Part shown: positions 10,089-64,000 of the stretch, piece by piece | How the letters are laid out: every line of letters begins with the position of its first letter | Numbering within the stretch: the first letter of the stretch is position 1 | Origin: an uncultured Gammaproteobacteria bacterium | GTDB lineage: Bacteria; Patescibacteriota; Patescibacteriia; CAZGFX01 | DNA length: 64,000 nucleotides | Assembly (NCBI GenBank): GCA_964524845.1 | Contig: CAZGFX010000001.1 | Coordinates: forward strand, 163,281 to 227,280 | Reading direction: 5' to 3' | Translations under genes and position numbers: made by a program | Notes under the pieces: model-generated | What the model saw: the letters and a program-made list of their open reading frames with translations, nothing else | Database searches by the model: none | What the model was told of the DNA's origin: nothing

Positions 10089-10979
10089 TTAACGCTTCAA
10101 AATACTTGATATTCTTCTCAAATCTCCTGGAGTCGAATATGTTATAGAAACACTTCCTTTTCCGTTCTTGTCATTAATAACTACTTTTGTTCCAAGTGAT
10201 CGTGAAAACTCCTTTTCCAAAAGAACGAGGTCTGCTCGCTTAATATTAAGTATTGATACCGAGGATTTTGCATCATGTTTTTTTATAACCTTCTCAGTAT
10301 CACGGACCGTCATTCCGGCCGCAAGTATTTGTTTGTATAATTGAATTCGTTCTATATCATTTCCTATTGCGAGAATGAGTTTTGCATGAGCAAATGTCAG
10401 ACGTCCTTCTGCAAGAGCCTTCTGAATCTCTCCTGGTAGCTCGAGAACGCGAAGTGTGTTCGCTACGGTCGAACGTTTCTTTCCAAGACGTTTCGCCGCT
10501 TCGTCTTGTGTAAGACCGAATTCATCAATCAATTGTTTATAACTTTGAGCAAGTTCTATAATATTAAGATCCTGACGTTGTATATTTTCAATGAGTGCGA
10601 GTTCCAACTTCTCCATCTCTTCCGCTCGTTTGAGAATCACCGGCACCGTTTCAAGTCCGGCTTCACGAGCGGCGCGTAGACGACGCTCACCTGATATGAG
10701 CTGTACTTTATCCGAATGAGGATCTTTTGAAACAACTAACGGCTGAATAATTCCGTGCTGTTTGATTGATTCTACAAGACCCGATAATTCCTCTTGATCA
10801 AAATTGCGGCGCGGCTGATATGGATTAACATCAATATTATCAACTGGGATATATAAAATGTTTTGTTCGTTCTTTTTTCCTGTTGGAAGAATAATCCGAT
10901 CTATCTGTGTTTCGGCTGTTTTTATTCTGTGCGGGATAAGAGATCCTAGTCCTTTTCCAAGCGGAGATTTGTTATTCAT
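10089..10979 (-). CDS. parB: Chromosome partitioning protein ParB
   Basis: ParB box LISGERRLRAAREAGLETVPVIL; HTH; directly downstream of parA. Confidence 0.9.
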   Translation of the reverse strand: MNNKSPLGKGLGSLIPHRIKTAETQIDRIILPTGKKNEQNILYIPVDNIDVNPYQPRRNFDQEELSGLVESIKQHGIIQPLVVSKDPHSDKVQLISGERRLRAAREAGLETVPVILKRAEEMEKLELALIENIQRQDLNIIELAQSYKQLIDEFGLTQDEAAKRLGKKRSTVANTLRVLELPGEIQKALAEGRLTFAHAKLILAIGNDIERIQLYKQILAAGMTVRDTEKVIKKHDAKSSVSILNIKRADLVLLEKEFSRSLGTKVVINDKNGKGSVSITYSTPGDLRRISSILKR

Positions 10980-10990
10980 ATATATAAATT

Positions 10991-11770
10991 TTATGTTTCG
11001 TTTTTTTCCATTGCGATTATTTCTTTTGCAAGCGCCTCATACGCAGCCGCGCCGCGAGACGAAGCATCATAAAGTGAGATCGGCTTCCCAAAAGAAGGCG
11101 CTTCAGCGAGTTTCACGTTACGCGGAACCACTGATGAAAAAATTCTATCAGGAAAATGATTTTTTAGCTCTTCAAACACAGCCTCCGAAAGTTTGTTTCG
11201 CCCGTCGTACATAGTAAGTACAGCGCCCAGAATACCTACTTTTGGTTGAAGATGCTTTTGAACTAGATATATCGTATGAAGTAATTGTCCTAGTCCTTCA
11301 AGCGCATAATATTCACATTGAACAGGTACTAGAATTTCTCTAGCCGCAACAATTCCATTAATTGTTAGAAGTCCTAGTGTCGGCGGACAATCAATAATAA
11401 TATAATCATAAAAACTCTCTATTTCTTTCAAACAATCCTCTAGACGAAATTCTCTTCGGGCCTCTTCAACAAGTTCAATATTCGCTCCAGCGAGATTCGG
11501 AGTACTTGGAGCAAGATGTAATCCATCAATTGTTGTAAGTTTCAACACATCTCTCATCTTCACACCACCGTTAGTAGTCATGACTTCATACATACCCTCG
11601 CCGACCGAAGCATGATCAATACCAAATCCCGAGCTCGCGTTTGCTTGTGGATCAAGATCAACTACCAACACTTTCTTTCCAAGTGTCGCTAGATATGCGG
11701 ACACATTAATTGCGGTCGTGGTCTTCCCGACCCCGCCTTTTTGATTTACAATAGCTATTGTTCTAGGCAT
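10991..11770 (-). CDS. parA: Chromosome partitioning ATPase ParA/Soj
   Basis: Deviant Walker A KGGVGKTTTAINVSAYLA; 259 aa. Confidence 0.9.
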   Translation of the reverse strand: MPRTIAIVNQKGGVGKTTTAINVSAYLATLGKKVLVVDLDPQANASSGFGIDHASVGEGMYEVMTTNGGVKMRDVLKLTTIDGLHLAPSTPNLAGANIELVEEARREFRLEDCLKEIESFYDYIIIDCPPTLGLLTINGIVAAREILVPVQCEYYALEGLGQLLHTIYLVQKHLQPKVGILGAVLTMYDGRNKLSEAVFEELKNHFPDRIFSSVVPRNVKLAEAPSFGKPISLYDASSRGAAAYEALAKEIIAMEKNET

Positions 11771-11943
11771 GATAGAACTTTAAAAGTATTATGTGGCCTT
11801 ATCTTACTAAAAAATCATAATTTATTCAACGACGGAAACACCATTTCAAGGCGTGATTAACACATATAAAAAGAGTTGATTTAATTGGCTAACATAGTAT
11901 ACTTTCTATCGTTAGAAATGAATGCTTTTATTAATTTATACAT

Positions 11944-12321
11944 GCCCGGATGGCGGAACTGGTATGCCTGATCTAGTTTATCCCGTTCGCGGGACTTTGC
12001 GGGATACCAGGCAGGCATTCTGCAATCAGATGCGGCCTCCGCCGCAATCTAACATTTGGCCCTCGTTTGCTTCGCGCACTCGGGATGCAGTAGGCCTGAT
12101 CCCGCTTTGCGGGATACCTGGCAGGCATTCTGCAAGAGGATCCCGCCACCGCGGGAATCTAACATTTGGCCCTCGTTTGCTTCGCGCACTCGGGATGCAG
12201 TAGGCCTGATCCCGCTTTGCGGGATACCTGGCAGGCATTCTGCAAGAGGATCCCGCCACCGCGGGAATCTAACATTTGGCCCTCGTTTGCTTCGCGCACT
12301 CGGGATGCAGTAGACGCGCAG
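11944..12321 (+). repeat. Partial copy of the tRNA-Leu 5' end (21 nt) fused to 3 tandem ~110-bp GC-rich units (REP-like hairpins ATCCCGC-ttt-GCGGGAT and TCCCGC-cacc-GCGGGA)
   Basis: 11944-11964 (gcccggatggcggaactggta) is identical to nt 1-21 of the tRNA-Leu gene at 12365. It is followed by one degenerate and two identical 110-bp units (12095-12204, 12205-12314). The last unit ends in gtagacgcgcag, which matches the tRNA D-loop region. GC content is far above the genome background. Confidence 0.8.
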
Positions 12322-12364
12322 AATAAAAAGAAGTACATTATTAGAAAGAGTTTATATTTTACAT

Positions 12365-12452
12365 GCCCGGATGGCGGAACTGGTAGACGCGCAGGACTCA
12401 AAATCCTGTTCTAGATAATAGAGTGAGAGTTCGATTCTCTCTCCGGGCACCA
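12365..12452 (+). tRNA. tRNA-Leu (anticodon CAA), long variable arm
   Basis: GCCCGGA acceptor pairs with TCCGGGC; anticodon stem CAGGA/TCCTG, loop CTCAAAA; long variable arm; T-arm GAGTTCGATTCTC; CCA encoded. Confidence 0.9.
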
Positions 12453-12594
12453 GCCTTCGCTCTGCGAGCTACGGCTGGCGCAGCCAGTCGTAAAGCGAGC
12501 AGCTAAGAGAAGTGCTAGTCCTTCCGAAGTTCCGCGAAGTGGAACGAAGGAGGACACAATTCTTTTTTTGTACAACAAAACATTTCTCACACAT

Positions 12595-12670
12595 GGCTAG
12601 GTAGCTCAGTTGGTAGAGCACAGGACTCATAAGCCTGCGGTCGCGAGTTCAAGCCTCGCCCTAGCCACCA
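12595..12670 (+). tRNA. tRNA-Met (anticodon CAU; elongator Met or Ile-lysidine type cannot be distinguished)
   Basis: GGCTAGG..CCTAGCC acceptor, D-arm GCTCAGTTGGTAGAGC, anticodon loop CTCATAA, T-arm GAGTTCAAGCCTC, CCA encoded. Confidence 0.85.
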
Positions 12671-12672
12671 AT

Positions 12673-12706
12673 TAAAAAACACCCTTTGCAGGATGTTTTT
12701 TTATTT
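12673..12706. terminator. Bidirectional Rho-independent terminator-like hairpin flanked by A-run and T-run
   Basis: aaaaaacaccctttgcaggatgttttttt, between tRNA-Met (+) and the 3' end of the convergent binding-protein gene (-). Confidence 0.4.
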
Positions 12707-12725
12707 TCAAAAAATTTTTCTTATA

Positions 12726-13877
12726 TCACTCAGAATTATCTTCTTCCCAGGCGCCATTTCTGAATCTAATTACATTAAGCGTTCTTTTCGAATTTCCTTT
12801 TTCATTAAATTTCAATGATCCGGAAATACCGTTGTAATTGGTTTTCAATAACTGATTAGCAATACATTGTGAGTCTCTTATTTTTCCTTCTTTCTTACAC
12901 GCAGAAATTGCATCAGTCAAAACATATATATCGTCATACATATATGCCACATCAGCCGCTGGCTTTCGTCCATATTTCGCTTGATATTTCAGAGAAAAAT
13001 CTTTTTGTTCTTGGTTGAAACCAGTTTCTGTAACCCAGTGCCAAACACTTACTGATTTATTTTCTTCAAAAAGCGCTTTCGTATCATCGGTATTTGCAAC
13101 AGGAAGAAACGGAGCAATCCAATGTAATATCGGGGTATTTATCATTCCCATTTCTTTTACTTGTTTCATTAGAATATGCTCGTGTCTCCATGCACATACT
13201 ACAATTGCCTCGGATTTCATTTCTTTTATCTTTAATAATGGCGTCTTGAGATCCGTGCTTGTTGAATTGTATGTTTCTTTACCAACAAGAGTCACTCCAT
13301 TTCCTTTTATACCATCCATAAACCCTTGTTCATATTGTAAGCACTGATCACTTACTTCAGATAGAAAAGCAATGTTTTTATACCCTTTTTTTATTACAGT
13401 TTCAGCCACTAATGATCCGCTGTCTCCTGCATCGAAATAATCTCTAAAAAACAAAGGGTTGCTTTCTGCAATATCACGAACGGTTGATGCATAAAACATT
13501 ACTTTATTATTATCTGCAACTATTGTTTTAACCGCATTTGTAATGTTTGTAAAAGCTGAAATAATAATATCAGCTTTATCAACAGTAAGCATTTTCGAAA
13601 CTGTGCTAGCAGCTTGTTTCGGTTCGCCAGCATTATCTTCTGTTACAAGTTTAATAGGCGTTCCATCAATTCCTCCTTTTGCATTTATTTCTTCAACTGC
13701 CATACTCATTCCATGAAATTCCGCCTCACCTATATATGCCAAATTACCAGATAAGGCCAATGTCGCTCCTATAACAATTGGTTTTTCGGTTTCGTTGTTT
13801 TTTGTATCCTTAAAAAACACATATCCTACAACAATTACTATAATAATACCTAGAACAATAACAATTTTTTTATTCAT
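12726..13877 (-). CDS. Membrane-anchored ABC-type branched-chain amino acid (Leu/Ile/Val-type) substrate-binding protein; orphan, with no permease or ATPase nearby
   Basis: N-terminal TM helix, then a type I periplasmic-binding-protein fold (IGATLALSGNLAYIGEAEFHGMSMAVEEINAKGGIDGTPIKLVTEDNAG). Confidence 0.75.
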   Translation of the reverse strand: MNKKIVIVLGIIIVIVVGYVFFKDTKNNETEKPIVIGATLALSGNLAYIGEAEFHGMSMAVEEINAKGGIDGTPIKLVTEDNAGEPKQAASTVSKMLTVDKADIIISAFTNITNAVKTIVADNNKVMFYASTVRDIAESNPLFFRDYFDAGDSGSLVAETVIKKGYKNIAFLSEVSDQCLQYEQGFMDGIKGNGVTLVGKETYNSTSTDLKTPLLKIKEMKSEAIVVCAWRHEHILMKQVKEMGMINTPILHWIAPFLPVANTDDTKALFEENKSVSVWHWVTETGFNQEQKDFSLKYQAKYGRKPAADVAYMYDDIYVLTDAISACKKEGKIRDSQCIANQLLKTNYNGISGSLKFNEKGNSKRTLNVIRFRNGAWEEDNSE

Positions 13878-27139: not shown

Positions 27140-27359
27140 ATGGAGAGGTGGCCCTGATACGTTCTAGCTAGCGCCAGAACTACAGGACAAAACCTTTCTA
27201 AAAAGTTTCTACTAGGAATTATTTGTTCTTTATAATATTATTTCATCATATGGAGAGGTGGCCCTGATACGTTCTAGCTAGCGCTAGAACTACAGGGCAA
27301 AACCTTTCTAAAAAGTTTCTACTAGGAATTATTTGTTCTTTATAATATTATTTCATCAT
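27140..27359 (+). repeat. Two tandem 110-bp units, each beginning with the first 12 nt of tRNA-Ser (ggagaggtggcc) followed by a palindromic GC-rich block and an AT-rich TATAAT-containing segment
   Basis: Units at 27140-27249 and 27250-27359 differ at 2 positions. The third iteration is the genuine tRNA-Ser, so the repeat unit runs from tRNA nt 13 of one copy to nt 12 of the next. Confidence 0.8.
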
Positions 27360-27361
27360 AT

Positions 27362-27452
27362 GGAGAGGTGGCCGAGTTGGCTGAAGGCACCACATTGCTA
27401 ACGTGGCAGGGAGTAAAATCCCTCGGAGGTTCGAATCCTCTCCTCTCCGCCA
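27362..27452 (+). tRNA. tRNA-Ser (anticodon GCU), long variable arm
   Basis: GGAGAGG acceptor, anticodon loop TTGCTAA, long variable arm CAGGGAGTAAAATCCCTC, T-arm GGAGGTTCGAATCCTCT, CCA encoded. Confidence 0.9.
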
Positions 27453-27552
27453 TAGATTTGACAGGCTCGCCGTAGGTGAGGCTATCAAATCTATTGATAG
27501 GATAGAGAGGATGAGAAGTTTATGCCCGGAGTCACGAAGTGACGAACGGGTA

Positions 27553-27576
27553 AATCCTCTCCTCTCCGCCATAGAT
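27553..27576 (+). repeat. 24-nt direct duplicate of the tRNA-Ser 3' end (aatcctctcctctccgccatagat), ~100 bp downstream of the gene
   Basis: Exact match to 27434-27457, which covers the T-loop 3' half, acceptor 3' strand and CCA plus 4 nt. The intervening 100 bp contains two hairpins (agatttga..tcaaatct; gtcacgaagtgac). Confidence 0.75.
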
Positions 27577-37861: not shown

Positions 37862-37998
37862 GAAACTATCGATTTCTACTCTATCATAGCACGAATTCGC
37901 CGTTCAATCGAGGGTATTTTTTCAAATAAATATTATCGTAAAACAACATATATAATTGACAAAAAAACACAAATGCGTGTATAATGCGTTTTGTTCGT

Positions 37999-38075
<77 letters not shown>

Positions 38076-48501: not shown

Positions 48502-49110
48502 CTATACTTTTTTCATCATTCTTTCGAAAACGTTTTTTTCTAATTCGCTTCCTGATGGTGTTTTGTCATAGATATATCTTAATTCATCAAATGTTAATTT
48601 TTCAAAAAAACGTTCTGGCAAATCTTCATAGAAAACAACAGATGCTAATCCTAAGCCAAAGTTTTTTTTAAGCTCATTAAATTTTTCTCTCTTTTCATAA
48701 TCTGATTTATTTATATAAAGTGTATGTTTAAGTTTCATTATATTTTCTAAAGCAAGTCTATTTAAAACAATCCTGGATTTAGATTGATCGTAAACAAATA
48801 ACCACTCGTCAAATGTCTCAGCAAGCTCCGACATTTTTTCTAAAGCCAATTCTTTTAAAGATTTTTTAAATACACAATATTTGTAAATAAATTTCCATTC
48901 ATTAAATGTCTCAGCAAACTCCGACATTTTTTCTAAGGCCAATTCTTTTAAATCCCTTTTAAACCCAGAATATTTGTAAATCAACTTCCATTCACCAAAT
49001 GTTTTCTTAATCTCTGACATTTTCTCTGAAGCTTCTTTTTTCAAATAGCTTCCGGATTGAGATTTGCTATAAATCAAAAACCATTCATCAAAACTTTTTG
49101 TGTTTCCCAT
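48502..49110 (-). CDS. Small tandem-repeat protein (about five ~30-aa FxEWxxIYKYxxFKxxLKELALEKMSExAET repeats)
   Basis: Start trimmed to the ATG of MGNTKSF, which has a GAAGGAT RBS. The tracked TTG start (MVGKK..) lies inside the shared upstream repeat. Confidence 0.6.
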   Translation of the reverse strand: MGNTKSFDEWFLIYSKSQSGSYLKKEASEKMSEIKKTFGEWKLIYKYSGFKRDLKELALEKMSEFAETFNEWKFIYKYCVFKKSLKELALEKMSELAETFDEWLFVYDQSKSRIVLNRLALENIMKLKHTLYINKSDYEKREKFNELKKNFGLGLASVVFYEDLPERFFEKLTFDELRYIYDKTPSGSELEKNVFERMMKKV

Positions 49111-49233
49111 AATTATATCCTTCTTTTCTTTTTTAATTTTTTTTCCAACCAAGAATTGGCTGGTGTTTATTTTTCTTATTCACTCCCCGATCAGTATGAC
49201 CGATCAGGAAGTTGAAAGAAATTTAAAATAAAA
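49111..49233 (-). promoter_or_regulatory. Shared upstream module, copy 1 (direct CCGATCAG repeats, CCAAC..GTTGG palindrome, AT-rich block, RBS)
   Basis: ~85% identical to the modules at 49648-49765 and, in part, 49964-50078. Confidence 0.6.
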
Positions 49234-49647
49234 TTATTTCCAATTCCTTATTTGTCCGTCTGCTGTTTGATAAACAACAATACCTTCATCAGAAACACTT
49301 ATAATCTCTTCTATGTGTTTTTCTTTTGCATAATAACCATTGTTGTTTGTTGAAGATATTTGATATTTTTCGAATGATGTTTCTTTTTTTTGTGGCTCAT
49401 CAGTTCGAAAATCAAAAATAACCAAAGCATTATAATCTTCGCTTCTTCCTTCGCAACTTGCATATGGTGTTACTGAAATACCTTTATAAGTTGTGTACAT
49501 TCTGAGCTTAATAAAAGCCATATACTTTCCGTTTGGCGAAGCAGTAAAGTCGTTAGCAAGCCAAGTATCACAATGTGACACATCGCTTACATACAAAGAT
49601 TTGAAATATTTTAAAATTTCTTCTTTAAAATCTTCTAATGTTAACAT
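49234..49647 (-). CDS. Small hypothetical protein (137 aa)
   Basis: Start trimmed to MLTLEDF (AAAGGAG RBS 7 nt upstream); unrelated in sequence to its neighbours but shares the same 5' module. Confidence 0.55.
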   Translation of the reverse strand: MLTLEDFKEEILKYFKSLYVSDVSHCDTWLANDFTASPNGKYMAFIKLRMYTTYKGISVTPYASCEGRSEDYNALVIFDFRTDEPQKKETSFEKYQISSTNNNGYYAKEKHIEEIISVSDEGIVVYQTADGQIRNWK

Positions 49648-49765
49648 ATATTTTCTCCTTTTTTTCTTATTTAATTTTTTTCCAACCAATAAATAGTTGG
49701 TGTTTATTTTTCTTATTCACTCCCCGATTAGTATGACCGATCAGGAAGTTGAAAGAAAAATTATT
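49648..49765 (-). promoter_or_regulatory. Shared upstream module, copy 2 (contains the palindrome CACCAACTATTTATTGGTTGG)
   Basis: See copy 1. The palindrome CCAAC-N9-GTTGG is the best operator candidate. Confidence 0.6.
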
Positions 49766-49963
49766 CTAACACCAAGAATCCAAAAATATTTCACCAACAT
49801 GTGTGGTTTTATAATTTTGTATAATATTTTTTTCAGAATTCTTGTTTAAAAAAAACACATACGAGTCTTCTTCGTCAGACCAGTCAGGAAGGCCTTCGTT
49901 TTCTATTGATATCGCGTGTTCATTCCTTCCACAAACAGGACCATACCCGTCTTTGTTTTTCAT
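49766..49963 (-). CDS. Small hypothetical protein (65 aa) with an LPDWSDEEDSYVFFLNKN motif
   Basis: Start trimmed to MKNKDGYG (AAAAGGAG RBS); the motif is shared with the protein at 38269..38982. Confidence 0.5.
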   Translation of the reverse strand: MKNKDGYGPVCGRNEHAISIENEGLPDWSDEEDSYVFFLNKNSEKNIIQNYKTTHVGEIFLDSWC

Positions 49964-50078
49964 TTGTTTTCTCCTTTTTTTCTTATTTAATTTTTTTCCA
50001 ACCAATAAATAGCTGGAGTTTATTTTTCTTATAAAGTCCTCAATCGTTTTTAGCGATTGAGGAGTATAAAGTAAATAA
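49964..50078 (-). promoter_or_regulatory. Shared upstream module, copy 3 (partial; it diverges into a different hairpin CCTCAATCG-tttttag-CGATTGAGG)
   Basis: The first ~45 nt are identical to copies 1 and 2. The distal part is replaced by a 9-bp-stem hairpin that probably terminates the upstream gene. Confidence 0.5.
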
Positions 50079-55250: not shown

Positions 55251-55686
55251 AGTTTACGCCATCTATTAACTACGTCAAGAGGCTTGTCTCGAGCGCGAAG
55301 CGCGAGAGACCTCATCAAGCGCGAAGCGCGAGAGACCTTCTCGAGCAAACCTTTTTAATGTCATCTCGACCGAAGGCGCCTGTCCTGACGGATGTCAGGA
55401 AGAGATCCCCAACACAGTATTATGACAAACATGTTTTAAAACATTCGTAATTTGTGTTCTCCTTTCTCGTAATTTCCCTCTCTCGTAATTCGTTCACCCT
55501 GTGAAATAAGATTCAAAACAGGTTGAGATTTTGTTTATAAATTAATCAAAAATAATTGATTAAACATATATAATAGTAAAAATTAATCCGAATCTTAATT
55601 TCAGAATGAAATTATTTCACAGGGTAAATTCGTAATTTGTGTTCTTCCTTCTCGTAATTTTCTCTTTTCGGTACTATACTTTCCAC
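55251..55686. promoter_or_regulatory. Divergent uvrA-uvrC control region with an inverted repeat, a 24-bp direct repeat, a hairpin, and five TCGTAATT(T) boxes in two inverted clusters
   Basis: Direct repeat gcgcgaagcgcgagagacct x2 (55300-55350); hairpin GTCCTGACGgatGTCAGGAAG (55380-55400); TCGTAATT at ~55447, 55469, 55484, 55631, 55653; inverted repeat CACCCTGTGAAAT / ATTTCACAGGGTA (55497 and 55614). Confidence 0.55.
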
Positions 55687-63660: not shown

Positions 63661-64000
63661 TGAATAATTTACATTTAAAATTATTGGTTGAAACAGGAAC
63701 ATTATCCGTCGATCAGATGCTTGAAGCGATCAAGCTTTCCGGGAATGATTCGGACGTTGCTAAGGCGGTTGTAAACCAGATCAAATTGGAAACAATGTCG
63801 CAAACCGAAATGTTTGAAGCGATCAAGCTTTCCGGAAATAGTTGGTATGTCGCTAAGGCGGTTATAAACACCAGAACATTATCCGTCGATCAGATGTTTG
63901 AAGTTATTAAGCTTTCCGGAAATCGTTGGAGTGTCACTCAGGCGGTTGTAAATAAGATCAAATGGGAAACAATGTCGCAAACCGAAATGTTTGAAGCGAT
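63661..64000 (+). CDS. Hypothetical tandem-repeat protein (N-terminal part; runs off the window end)
   Basis: GGAG RBS; four or more ~37-aa repeats (LSVDQMxEAIKLSGNxxxVAKAVVNxIKxETMSQTEMFEAIKLSGN) produced by near-identical DNA repeats (ttgaagcgatcaagctttccgg x4). Confidence 0.6.

Follow-up and report, generated by a model that had tools for sequence, protein, structure and literature searches.

The closest described counterpart of the structure reported here is the tRNA-linked repeat of the Escherichia coli tyrT locus (RtT; Rfam RF00391), in which 178-bp units, about three of them, follow tRNA-Tyr and each carry the last 19 nt of the tRNA; RtT RNA is released from the tyrT primary transcript. 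Here we describe an array of GC-rich hairpin units that lies upstream of a tRNA-Leu gene (11944-12452, with the tRNA) on contig CAZGFX010000001.1 of an uncultured bacterium. Coordinates are positions in the stretch of that contig that we analysed (the window; 64,000 nt, 36.5% GC). The arrangement is that of tyrT/RtT mirrored to the 5' side of the tRNA, with unrelated hairpin content. As with RtT, tandem units of ~100-180 bp adjoin a tRNA gene in the same orientation and are accompanied by an exact piece of its tRNA; co-transcription is probable, and unequal recombination accounts for the repeats. Unlike RtT, the arrays at tRNA-Leu and at two further genes, tRNA-Ser and tRNA-Arg, are upstream and carry the 5' end of the tRNA, and their GC-rich hairpins have no sequence or covariance-model similarity to it (the Leu region gave no match at E<=10). 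Only a single copy, in the trailer of tRNA-Ser, is of the 3' type: the tRNA's 3' end recurs there 119 nt downstream, a direct analogue of RtT with a weak match to the family (20.3 bits, below the gathering score of 45).

RtT, mosaic palindromes, attachment-site scars and plain pseudo-tRNAs each depart from the arrays in at least one defining respect. Repetitive extragenic palindromic (REP) sequences and bacterial interspersed mosaic elements (BIMEs) are likewise intergenic, GC-rich imperfect palindromes that are sometimes clustered in tandem, and GTAG precedes hairpin 1 of each Leu unit (GTAG, then GCCTG..CAGGC); at tRNA-Ser and tRNA-Arg this motif is simply tRNA nt 7-10. Unlike REP/BIMEs, each sequence type here occupies one locus, the units are direct rather than alternating, the flanks are tRNA-derived, and no REP-associated tyrosine transposase (RAYT) or Y1 (HUH) transposase was found in the window. 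The partial tRNA repeats at attachment (att) sites are also exact direct repeats of part of a tRNA in the same orientation, with older copies distal and the intact tRNA preserved; tycheposons, for instance, are integrative-element islands with rows of partial tRNAs. The copies described here, however, are of the 5' part of the tRNA, are spaced by ~100 bp rather than kilobases and come with no integrase or cargo. Their identity to the tRNA ends at nt 9, 12, 13 and 21/30, in the D-arm, whereas att crossovers fall in the anticodon loop, the T loop or the extreme 3' end.

The pseudo-tRNA remnants of organelle genomes, attributed to tandem duplication and random loss, share with the arrays the presence of dead partial copies beside a live gene in a small AT-rich genome. 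A period of one tRNA plus a short spacer fits tRNA-Ser (110 nt; tRNA of 91 nt) and tRNA-Arg (113 nt; tRNA of 77 nt), but the Leu copy without its insert has a period of 73 nt, less than the 88-nt tRNA. Unlike such remnants, the arrays retain no similarity to the tRNA outside nt 1-30, their junctions are sharp, their GC-rich hairpins conserve structure, and they have been amplified further. Yeast mitochondrial GC clusters, dispersed many-copy families that insert into non-essential sequence, are similarly short GC-rich palindromes within AT-rich DNA; here each sequence is unique to its locus and the context is bacterial. A literature search found no published description of such arrays.

We tentatively favour, with a little less than even confidence, an origin in local partial duplication of the 5' end of tRNA-Leu, followed by amplification in place and transcription as a structured leader. 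Among the options offered by a first-pass annotation made from the sequence, 'repeated recombination', in the form of local duplication and unequal exchange, fits best. The value of the locus lies mainly in the recurrence of one design, in which a 5' partial copy has a hairpin in its D-loop, in unrelated bacteria, and in the source genome as a hot spot.

Anatomy of the tRNA-Leu array

tRNA genes were called with ARAGORN and Rfam, tandem repeats with Tandem Repeats Finder (TRF), and tRNA copies by k-mer comparison of each tRNA with the whole window (Table 1). The array stands between the divergent gene parA and a tRNA-Leu/tRNA-Met pair, and its region is ~60% GC, against the much lower value of the window. 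It opens with an exact copy of tRNA-Leu nt 1-21, as the first-pass annotation had reported, comprising the acceptor 5' strand, the D-stem 5' strand and most of the D-loop. The 4 bases ACAT directly 5' of nt 1 are also common to the gene and the upstream fragment (copy from 11940). At the other end stands a copy of nt 19-30 (GTAGACGCGCAG), made up of the D-loop end, the D-stem 3' strand and the first part of the anticodon stem. The array is thus flanked on either side by tRNA-Leu sequence, as had been proposed, and the upstream copy is best read as tRNA-Leu nt 1-30, covering the acceptor 5' strand and the entire D-arm, whose D-loop is split by a 349-nt insertion.

The insert consists of three units arranged head-to-tail (TRF: period 110 nt, 2.9 copies, 95% matches, 11995-12313). 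They had been described as one degenerate and two perfect 110-bp units; units 2 and 3 are indeed identical at that length, but unit 1 measures 129 nt, with an additional 18-19-nt stretch containing a CCCG-UUCG-CGGG hairpin and with a variant hairpin 2. The final 4 bases of unit 3 (GTAG) serve also as tRNA-Leu nt 19-22. The hairpins named in the first-pass annotation are present in the units. In unit 2, hairpin 1 is GCCUG/AUCCCGC-UUU-GCGGGAU/CAGGC, and 3' of it lie a CUGCA/UGCAG helix around hairpin 2 (AUCCCGC-CACC-GCGGGAAU) and hairpin 3. Hairpin 2 reads AUGCGGC/GCCGCAAU in unit 1, compared with AUCCCGC/GCGGGAAU in units 2 and 3; the difference comprises two compensatory pairs, in which both sides changed, and one-sided changes that keep the pairing. 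Downstream of the gene, the Leu-Met spacer is GC-rich and hairpin-forming, as claimed, and folds better in the tRNA-sense orientation (-54.6 vs -43.0 antisense), although it is 142 nt long rather than 138. The tRNA-Met gene that follows is presumably co-transcribed with tRNA-Leu.

The junctions were checked against Logan short-read contigs of SRR12133403, retrieved by exact-protein look-up. These contigs match the window at 100% across the left Leu junction (upstream sequence, fragment and unit 1), the right Leu junction (unit end, nt 22-30, spacer, tRNA-Leu, spacer and tRNA-Met) and both outer junctions of the tRNA-Ser array. Because the outer junctions are reproduced base for base in independent contigs, they are not chimeric, in answer to the concern over an assembly chimera raised in the first-pass annotation. 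A mis-expanded repeat would agree with the breaking of short-read contigs within every array; the SRR12133403 contigs end within the repeats, as expected of short reads, so that the number of identical Leu units (two) rests on the window assembly and is unverified. Analogous structures nevertheless occur in unrelated assemblies, and together with the reproduced junctions they make an artefact, whether chimera or mis-expansion, extremely unlikely.

The GC-rich sequence has no detectable source in the tRNA itself. A tRNA covariance model found nothing in the arrays, and a reading of the GC-rich parts as decayed tRNA bodies was rejected after local alignment to the cognate tRNA proved no better than shuffles for every segment (all p>0.05). 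Since the GC-rich parts keep no residual similarity to tRNA bodies, the fragment/hairpin junctions are sharp and do not reflect gradual decay. Rfam searches at gathering and lenient thresholds, covering the window, the three loci and five related loci, returned tRNAs only, save for the sub-threshold RtT match in the tRNA-Ser trailer. Perfect GC-rich hairpins in the intergenic DNA of the window lie mostly at tRNA loci, and the remainder look like ordinary terminators.

Recurrence at other tRNA genes and in other bacteria

A like architecture had been noted at two further tRNA loci, and we find it at tRNA-Ser (27140-27373) and tRNA-Arg (43751-44047, minus strand). In each tRNA-Ser module, ATGGAGAGGTGGCC (tRNA nt 1-12) is followed by a 42-nt GC-rich hairpin and an AT-rich spacer; in the predicted fold, the fragment pairs with the downstream ACCUUUCU, closing the hairpin (GGAGAGGU with ACCUUUCU). 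Each tRNA-Arg module is composed of a tRNA fragment (nt 1-13 in the proximal module), a hairpin CCCCGCACG..UGCGGGG and a spacer rich in AT. Of the tRNA-Arg fragments, the oldest (nt 1-9, 44039-44047) starts the distal module and is broken after GTA by a 59-nt GC-rich insertion, which parts the nine bases from GCT before the distal hairpin. The Ser and Arg units thus each contain nt 1-12/13, with nt 1-21 and nt 19-30 delimiting the Leu array: the three loci have a common design and unrelated hairpin sequences. Between the two Arg modules, the 47-nt hairpin blocks (43821-43867 and 43933-43979) differ at 0/47 positions and the adjoining AT-rich spacers at 19/58 (Fisher p=3e-6). In the tRNA-Ser trailer, which folds better in the tRNA-sense orientation, the duplicated 3' piece at 27553-27576 comprises nt 73-91 (19 nt) and TAGAT, and forms the 3' strand of a long hairpin.

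The source genome is enriched in this pattern, as the first-pass annotation had suggested. Our control set comprised 155 tRNAs at 120 loci from many phyla, obtained in a scan of one genome per species with the Leu 21-mer, and we counted copies of nt 1-9 or longer that lay <=600 nt upstream and were not another tRNA gene. Such a 5' partial copy accompanies 3/5 tRNAs in the window, compared with 5/155 control tRNAs (~3%; Fisher p=8e-4); the two tRNA-Met genes of the window have no such modules. The source genome is thus unusually prone to making or keeping modules. As a separate observation, the bases directly before nt 1 of the tRNA genes at 12365, 12595, 27362 and 43763 (minus strand) are ACAT, ACAT, ATAT and TCAT, each followed by G; CAT or ATAT precedes 4/5 tRNA genes and their upstream fragments, and may represent a lineage-specific context for processing or transcription start.

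The design recurs upstream of tRNA-Leu in Bacteroidota, in another member of the Patescibacteria (Paceibacterota) and in bacteria of 51-55% GC. A gapped search pattern, in which 12 nt of the Leu 5' end and a second occurrence of that end were separated by 75-105 nt, retrieved four metagenome contigs. In three loci of 51-55% GC with tRNA-Leu CAG (L163, L164 and L165), the order is tRNA nt 1-19, a hairpin CCCGCC..UGAGAA..GGCGGG, TAAA, nt 20-28, ~38 nt and the intact tRNA; this is a 5' partial copy to nt 28 with a hairpin in its D-loop, matching the Leu design of the window. The CCCGCC/GGCGGG stems and TAAA are conserved between L163 and L164/L165, whose flanks no longer align; the UGAGAA loop is common to all the hairpins of these three loci. 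L164 (2929-3006) has one older, 78-nt module (tRNA-Leu nt 1-9, hairpin and spacer) more than its close relative L165, which indicates that modules are gained or lost quickly. Related modules have periods of 114 nt in a Bacteroidota genome (L067), 93 nt in a contig of 34% GC (L162) and 117 nt in a Paceibacterota genome (L095); in the predicted fold of L162 the fragment GGAUGGCGG is paired with CCGUCAUCC, and L067 and L095 are alike. Copies of the 3' type also recur: at the tRNA-Ser of the window and at a tRNA-Leu (L139) and a tRNA-Cys (L161) of two other genomes of the candidate phyla radiation (CPR), a C(GAA)G-loop hairpin stands 5' of each 3' fragment, and the fragment is paired with an upstream complement.

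Across 12 modules, pairing of the fragment with its downstream flank exceeded that with shuffled flanks at p<0.05 in 5, with a combined p of about 7e-4, computed by hand from the per-module values. One could view modules of the form 'tRNA 5' fragment plus stable hairpin' as an undescribed class with a common cause across phyla and a hot spot in the source genome (3/5 tRNAs), acting either as a cis-acting element of the pre-tRNA leader or marking the footprint of an insertion or repair process specific to the D-arm. We hold this generalization to be rather doubtful. In its leader-element form, a copy of the acceptor/D-arm strand of the tRNA itself, locked in a hairpin, could influence the folding, processing or stability of the precursor.

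Replacement of a tRNA 5' half by integrating elements does exist. A 13.6-kb viral sequence (IMGVR_UViG_3300027373_000056, 1-13643; L174) ends in 40-nt direct repeats that correspond to tRNA-Leu(UAA) nt 1-40, and one of its ends adjoins a tyrosine integrase. The sequence would appear to belong to an integrative element by which the 5' half of a tRNA, and not the usual 3' half, is replaced. The same tRNA-Leu(UAA) 5' half occurs without a tRNA in a second IMG/VR sequence (L167, 380-420), and at a third locus (L101) a tRNA 5' half lies 198 nt upstream of its tRNA; the copies in all three end in the anticodon loop. The arrays could accordingly be scars of elements that have the 5' part of tRNA genes as their target; an integration would bring a new leader and 5' end and displace the old fragment upstream, with repeated integration and later erosion leaving tandem remnants of fragment and arm. 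Besides these precedents, exact direct tRNA repeats bound each module, the arrays are polarised with older copies distal, and, as an att arm would be, the Arg hairpin beside the fragment has been kept where the remainder has diverged. We nevertheless judge such scars improbable. The inserts (75-420 bp) contain no ORF, and no recombinase or foreign gene was found in or near the three loci; the modules are only ~75-130 bp, so that three different elements would have had to erode to the same size; and the Leu units lie inside the fragment rather than after it. The breakpoints fall in the D-arm (nt 9-30) and not in the anticodon or T loops, which known integrases reportedly use (the sublocation rule ascribed to Williams, 2002).

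Mobility of the hairpins themselves is another possible cause. The first-pass annotation had suggested a REP/BIME-like element, and in a broader version the agent would be a small mobile GC-rich palindrome, resembling REP/RAYT elements, IS200/IS605-derived palindrome-associated transposable elements (PATEs) or yeast mitochondrial GC clusters. Its targets would be sites of the GT(A/G)G-plus-hairpin type, for example the tRNA D-arm, and only its insertions into dead partial tRNA copies would have survived. In agreement with this, the Leu units start with GTAG ahead of the GCCTG palindrome and end in GTAG, so that the site is restored; GTAG/GTGG (tRNA nt 7-10) precedes the hairpins of Arg and Ser; the second GC-rich insertion, in the oldest Arg fragment, follows GTA; and independent lineages have hairpins in the D-loop of partial copies. 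However, GT(A/G)G at nt 7-10 is conserved tRNA sequence (U8, R9, G10), and no hairpin sequence is common to any two loci. In the window, a 35-mer of the Leu unit, allowing <=3 mismatches, occurs only in the three array copies (12056-12310; chance expectation 0). A degenerate pattern of the Leu unit and Arg hairpin had 0 matches in 185,579 species genomes and 0 in the Joint Genome Institute (JGI) metagenome collection, the source genome evidently lying outside both. The ORFs of the window include no transposase (Y1_Tnp included), integrase or reverse transcriptase. With units private to one locus, the REP/BIME suggestion was not supported, and we regard a mobile palindrome of any of these kinds as distinctly improbable. 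A viral origin of the unit was also rejected: one 16-mer of the unit, the only query run against IMG/VR, gave 36 chance matches without extended similarity.

Origin and transcription of the arrays

Under the local-duplication reading, 11944-12364 would have arisen when the start of the tRNA-Leu unit was partially duplicated in tandem, and would represent the dead upstream copy; the duplicated piece would have been a short leader plus tRNA nt 1-30. The 349-nt hairpin block in the dead D-loop would then have been amplified in place by unequal exchange or replication slippage, leaving the two gene-proximal units identical and the distal unit diverged. From its position, the block would most likely be transcribed as a highly structured 5' leader of ~450 nt and removed by RNase P. 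Its hairpins may be tolerated, or selected as an inert, stable leader structure; they may lock up the redundant copy of the tRNA 5' strand and shield the 5' end of the precursor.

The promoter context is consistent with leader transcription. A scan by consensus matching to sigma-70-like sites under set criteria found a single site upstream of the Leu/Met unit, 40 nt 5' of the first tRNA fragment. As the Leu block lies between this sole promoter-like site (11876-11903) and the intact tRNA-Leu and tRNA-Met genes, it is most likely transcribed as a 5' leader. The sole tRNA-Arg site under the same criteria lies upstream of the whole array and directly follows the terminator of the preceding gene. 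A perfect consensus site stands before the array-free tRNA-Met at 37999, indicating that consensus-type promoters are used in the source CPR genome.

The first-pass annotation had also raised decoy transcription units, that is, independent small-RNA genes in which each fragment starts its own short transcript with a hairpin at the end. Conserved hairpins would suit such genes, as would the similar AT-rich stretch and the CAT context, followed by G, that precede each fragment as they do the real genes. Promoter-like sites, however, were found only upstream of the whole Leu and Arg arrays: the scan gave no site meeting the criteria before inner fragments, and inner spacers were thus rejected as promoters. 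Moreover, the Leu units lack any AT-rich promoter region, no T-runs follow the hairpins, no Rfam family matches, and there is no specific complementarity to the cognate tRNA. We consider independent transcription of the units very unlikely, and the decoy proposal was not borne out. Hairpins acting as antisense to the cognate tRNA were likewise dropped, the complementarity showing no cognate preference.

Several observations weigh against the duplication-and-leader reading. It leaves the source of the GC-rich sequence, which has no detectable similarity to tRNA bodies, unexplained, and simple duplication does not predict the sharp fragment/hairpin junctions. The polarity of the arrays, old copies distal and young ones proximal, fits repeated site-specific insertion equally well. 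The folding advantage of the Leu units over shuffled sequences is modest (z about -1.9), folding favours neither strand of the 5' modules, and the Leu fragment has no complementarity to its own flank (p=0.89). The promoter scan, which was consensus matching only, found no site for tRNA-Ser. Homology between the region 5' of the first fragment and the inner spacers was not significant against shuffles: the Leu spacer 12322-12364 and the sequence 5' of the first fragment are colinear (TTAGAAA...TACAT) at p=0.21, and at tRNA-Arg an 11-mer seen by eye at the same offset in the upstream region and an inner spacer was likewise not significant. Finally, the structure-preserving changes in the hairpins could reflect gene conversion or template-switch correction of quasi-palindromes rather than selection.

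That last point leads to a neutral variant, in which the same duplication left debris with no role, drifting in the reduced genome of a small population, its palindromes kept by gene conversion and template-switch correction. The identity of units 2 and 3 indicates recent amplification, the folding of the 5' modules is without strand bias and the unit z-scores are modest, and one module was gained or lost between close relatives. Partial tRNA copies are sporadic in many bacteria and somewhat commoner in CPR loci (5' or 3' copies in the control set, 4/40 vs 3/115; p=0.07). Unconstrained sequence in a genome of 36% GC should nevertheless become AT-rich, and the blocks are ~60% GC; the Arg hairpin is invariant beside a spacer that is 33% diverged; and CCCGCC/GGCGGG and TAAA are kept between L163 and L164/L165 though the flanks are unalignable. 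On balance, we think pure debris somewhat unlikely. Should the modules prove to be debris alone, the starts of tRNA genes would still stand out as hot spots for small-scale duplication in reduced genomes, and the modules would explain short-read assembly breaks at tRNA genes in such genomes. If instead the hairpins are functional, they would constitute a novel type of pre-tRNA leader, made out of a second copy of the 5' strand of the tRNA itself, with a bearing on the control of precursor folding in organisms with single-copy tRNA genes.

Table 1 Features of the three tRNA-linked arrays and of the promoter-like sites near tRNA genes in the window.
Feature	Position	Strand	Evidence or remark
Sigma-70-like site TTGATT-16-TATACT, 9/12	11876-11903	+	Sole site upstream of Leu/Met unit
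Exact copy of tRNA-Leu nt 1-21	11944-11964	+	k-mer comparison
GC-rich unit 1, 129 nt, diverged copy	11965-12093	+	
GC-rich unit 2, 110 nt	12094-12203	+	
GC-rich unit 3, 110 nt, 100% same as unit 2	12204-12313	+	
Copy of tRNA-Leu nt 19-30 (GTAGACGCGCAG)	12310-12321	+	k-mer comparison
AT-rich spacer, 43 nt, between array and intact tRNA-Leu	12322-12364	+	
Intact tRNA-Leu(CAA), CCA encoded	12365-12452	+	ARAGORN, Rfam
GC-rich structured Leu-Met spacer, 142 nt	12453-12594	+	Folding z -4.8
Intact tRNA-Met(CAT), without duplicated fragment	12595-12670	+	ARAGORN, Rfam, k-mer comparison
tRNA-Ser: two 110-nt modules, 98% identical	27140-27359	+	TRF, k-mer comparison; left junction in independent contig
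Intact tRNA-Ser(GCT)	27362-27452	+	ARAGORN, Rfam
tRNA-Ser trailer: two stable hairpins, then tRNA 3' end copy	27453-27576	+	z -4.4 to -6.1
Perfect TTGACA-18-TATAAT site	37956-37985		13 nt 5' of array-free tRNA-Met (37999)
Intact tRNA-Arg(GCG)	43687-43763	-	ARAGORN, Rfam
tRNA-Arg: two ~113-nt modules	43764-43989	-	TRF, k-mer comparison
Oldest (third) tRNA-Arg fragment and 59-nt GC-rich insertion	43980-44047	-	
Sigma-70-like site TTGACC-17-TATTAT, 10/12	44107-44135	-	Upstream of whole Arg array

Other features of the window

Three further readings of the arrays were dropped: a replication origin (no DnaA boxes), a CRISPR, retron or ToxI-like system (no cas genes, reverse transcriptase or toxin gene) and a split tRNA (an intact tRNA follows each array). 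The genes adjoining the three loci encode ParA, a solute-binding protein and flavodoxin-like, NUDIX, major vault protein (MVP)-like and Wzy-like proteins, and the window also encodes RNase J. Its topoisomerase I (TopA) has a best non-self match of 58% identity, and the named matches are to Kerfeldbacteria, Buchananbacteria and Parcubacteria (Patescibacteria/CPR). No close relatives for synteny were found, exact-protein look-ups giving only short Logan contigs of the same sample.

An 866-aa ORF (40984-43584, +) is a homologue of major vault protein (Pfam MVP_shoulder, 95.8 bits; Vault_3, 36.8 bits), an unusual gene to find in a member of the Patescibacteria. On either side of this ORF stands a 31-nt terminator-like sequence (ACAAAAAAACAAGGTTATGCCTTGTTTGTTT; 40825-40855 and 43654-43684); the two copies are 100% identical and also bound its short-read contig. 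The ORF may be a recently inserted or duplicated cassette. In the divergent uvrA/uvrC intergenic region (55272-55417), a cluster of imperfect GC-rich hairpins with a duplicated AGCGCGAAGCGCGAGAGACC lies upstream of uvrA. The cluster is more stably folded on the strand that is sense for uvrA (-59.6 vs -48.7 kcal/mol), has no Rfam match and may be a structured uvrA leader. Close by, TTCGTAATTTGTGTTCT..CTCGTAATTT is repeated ~180 nt apart (55440-55660). Other repeats in the window include a 93-nt sequence present three times in a minus-strand ORF (48790-49068), repeats of 115-180 nt between small ORFs (49042-50075) and repeats of 60-127 nt at the window end (63697-64000).

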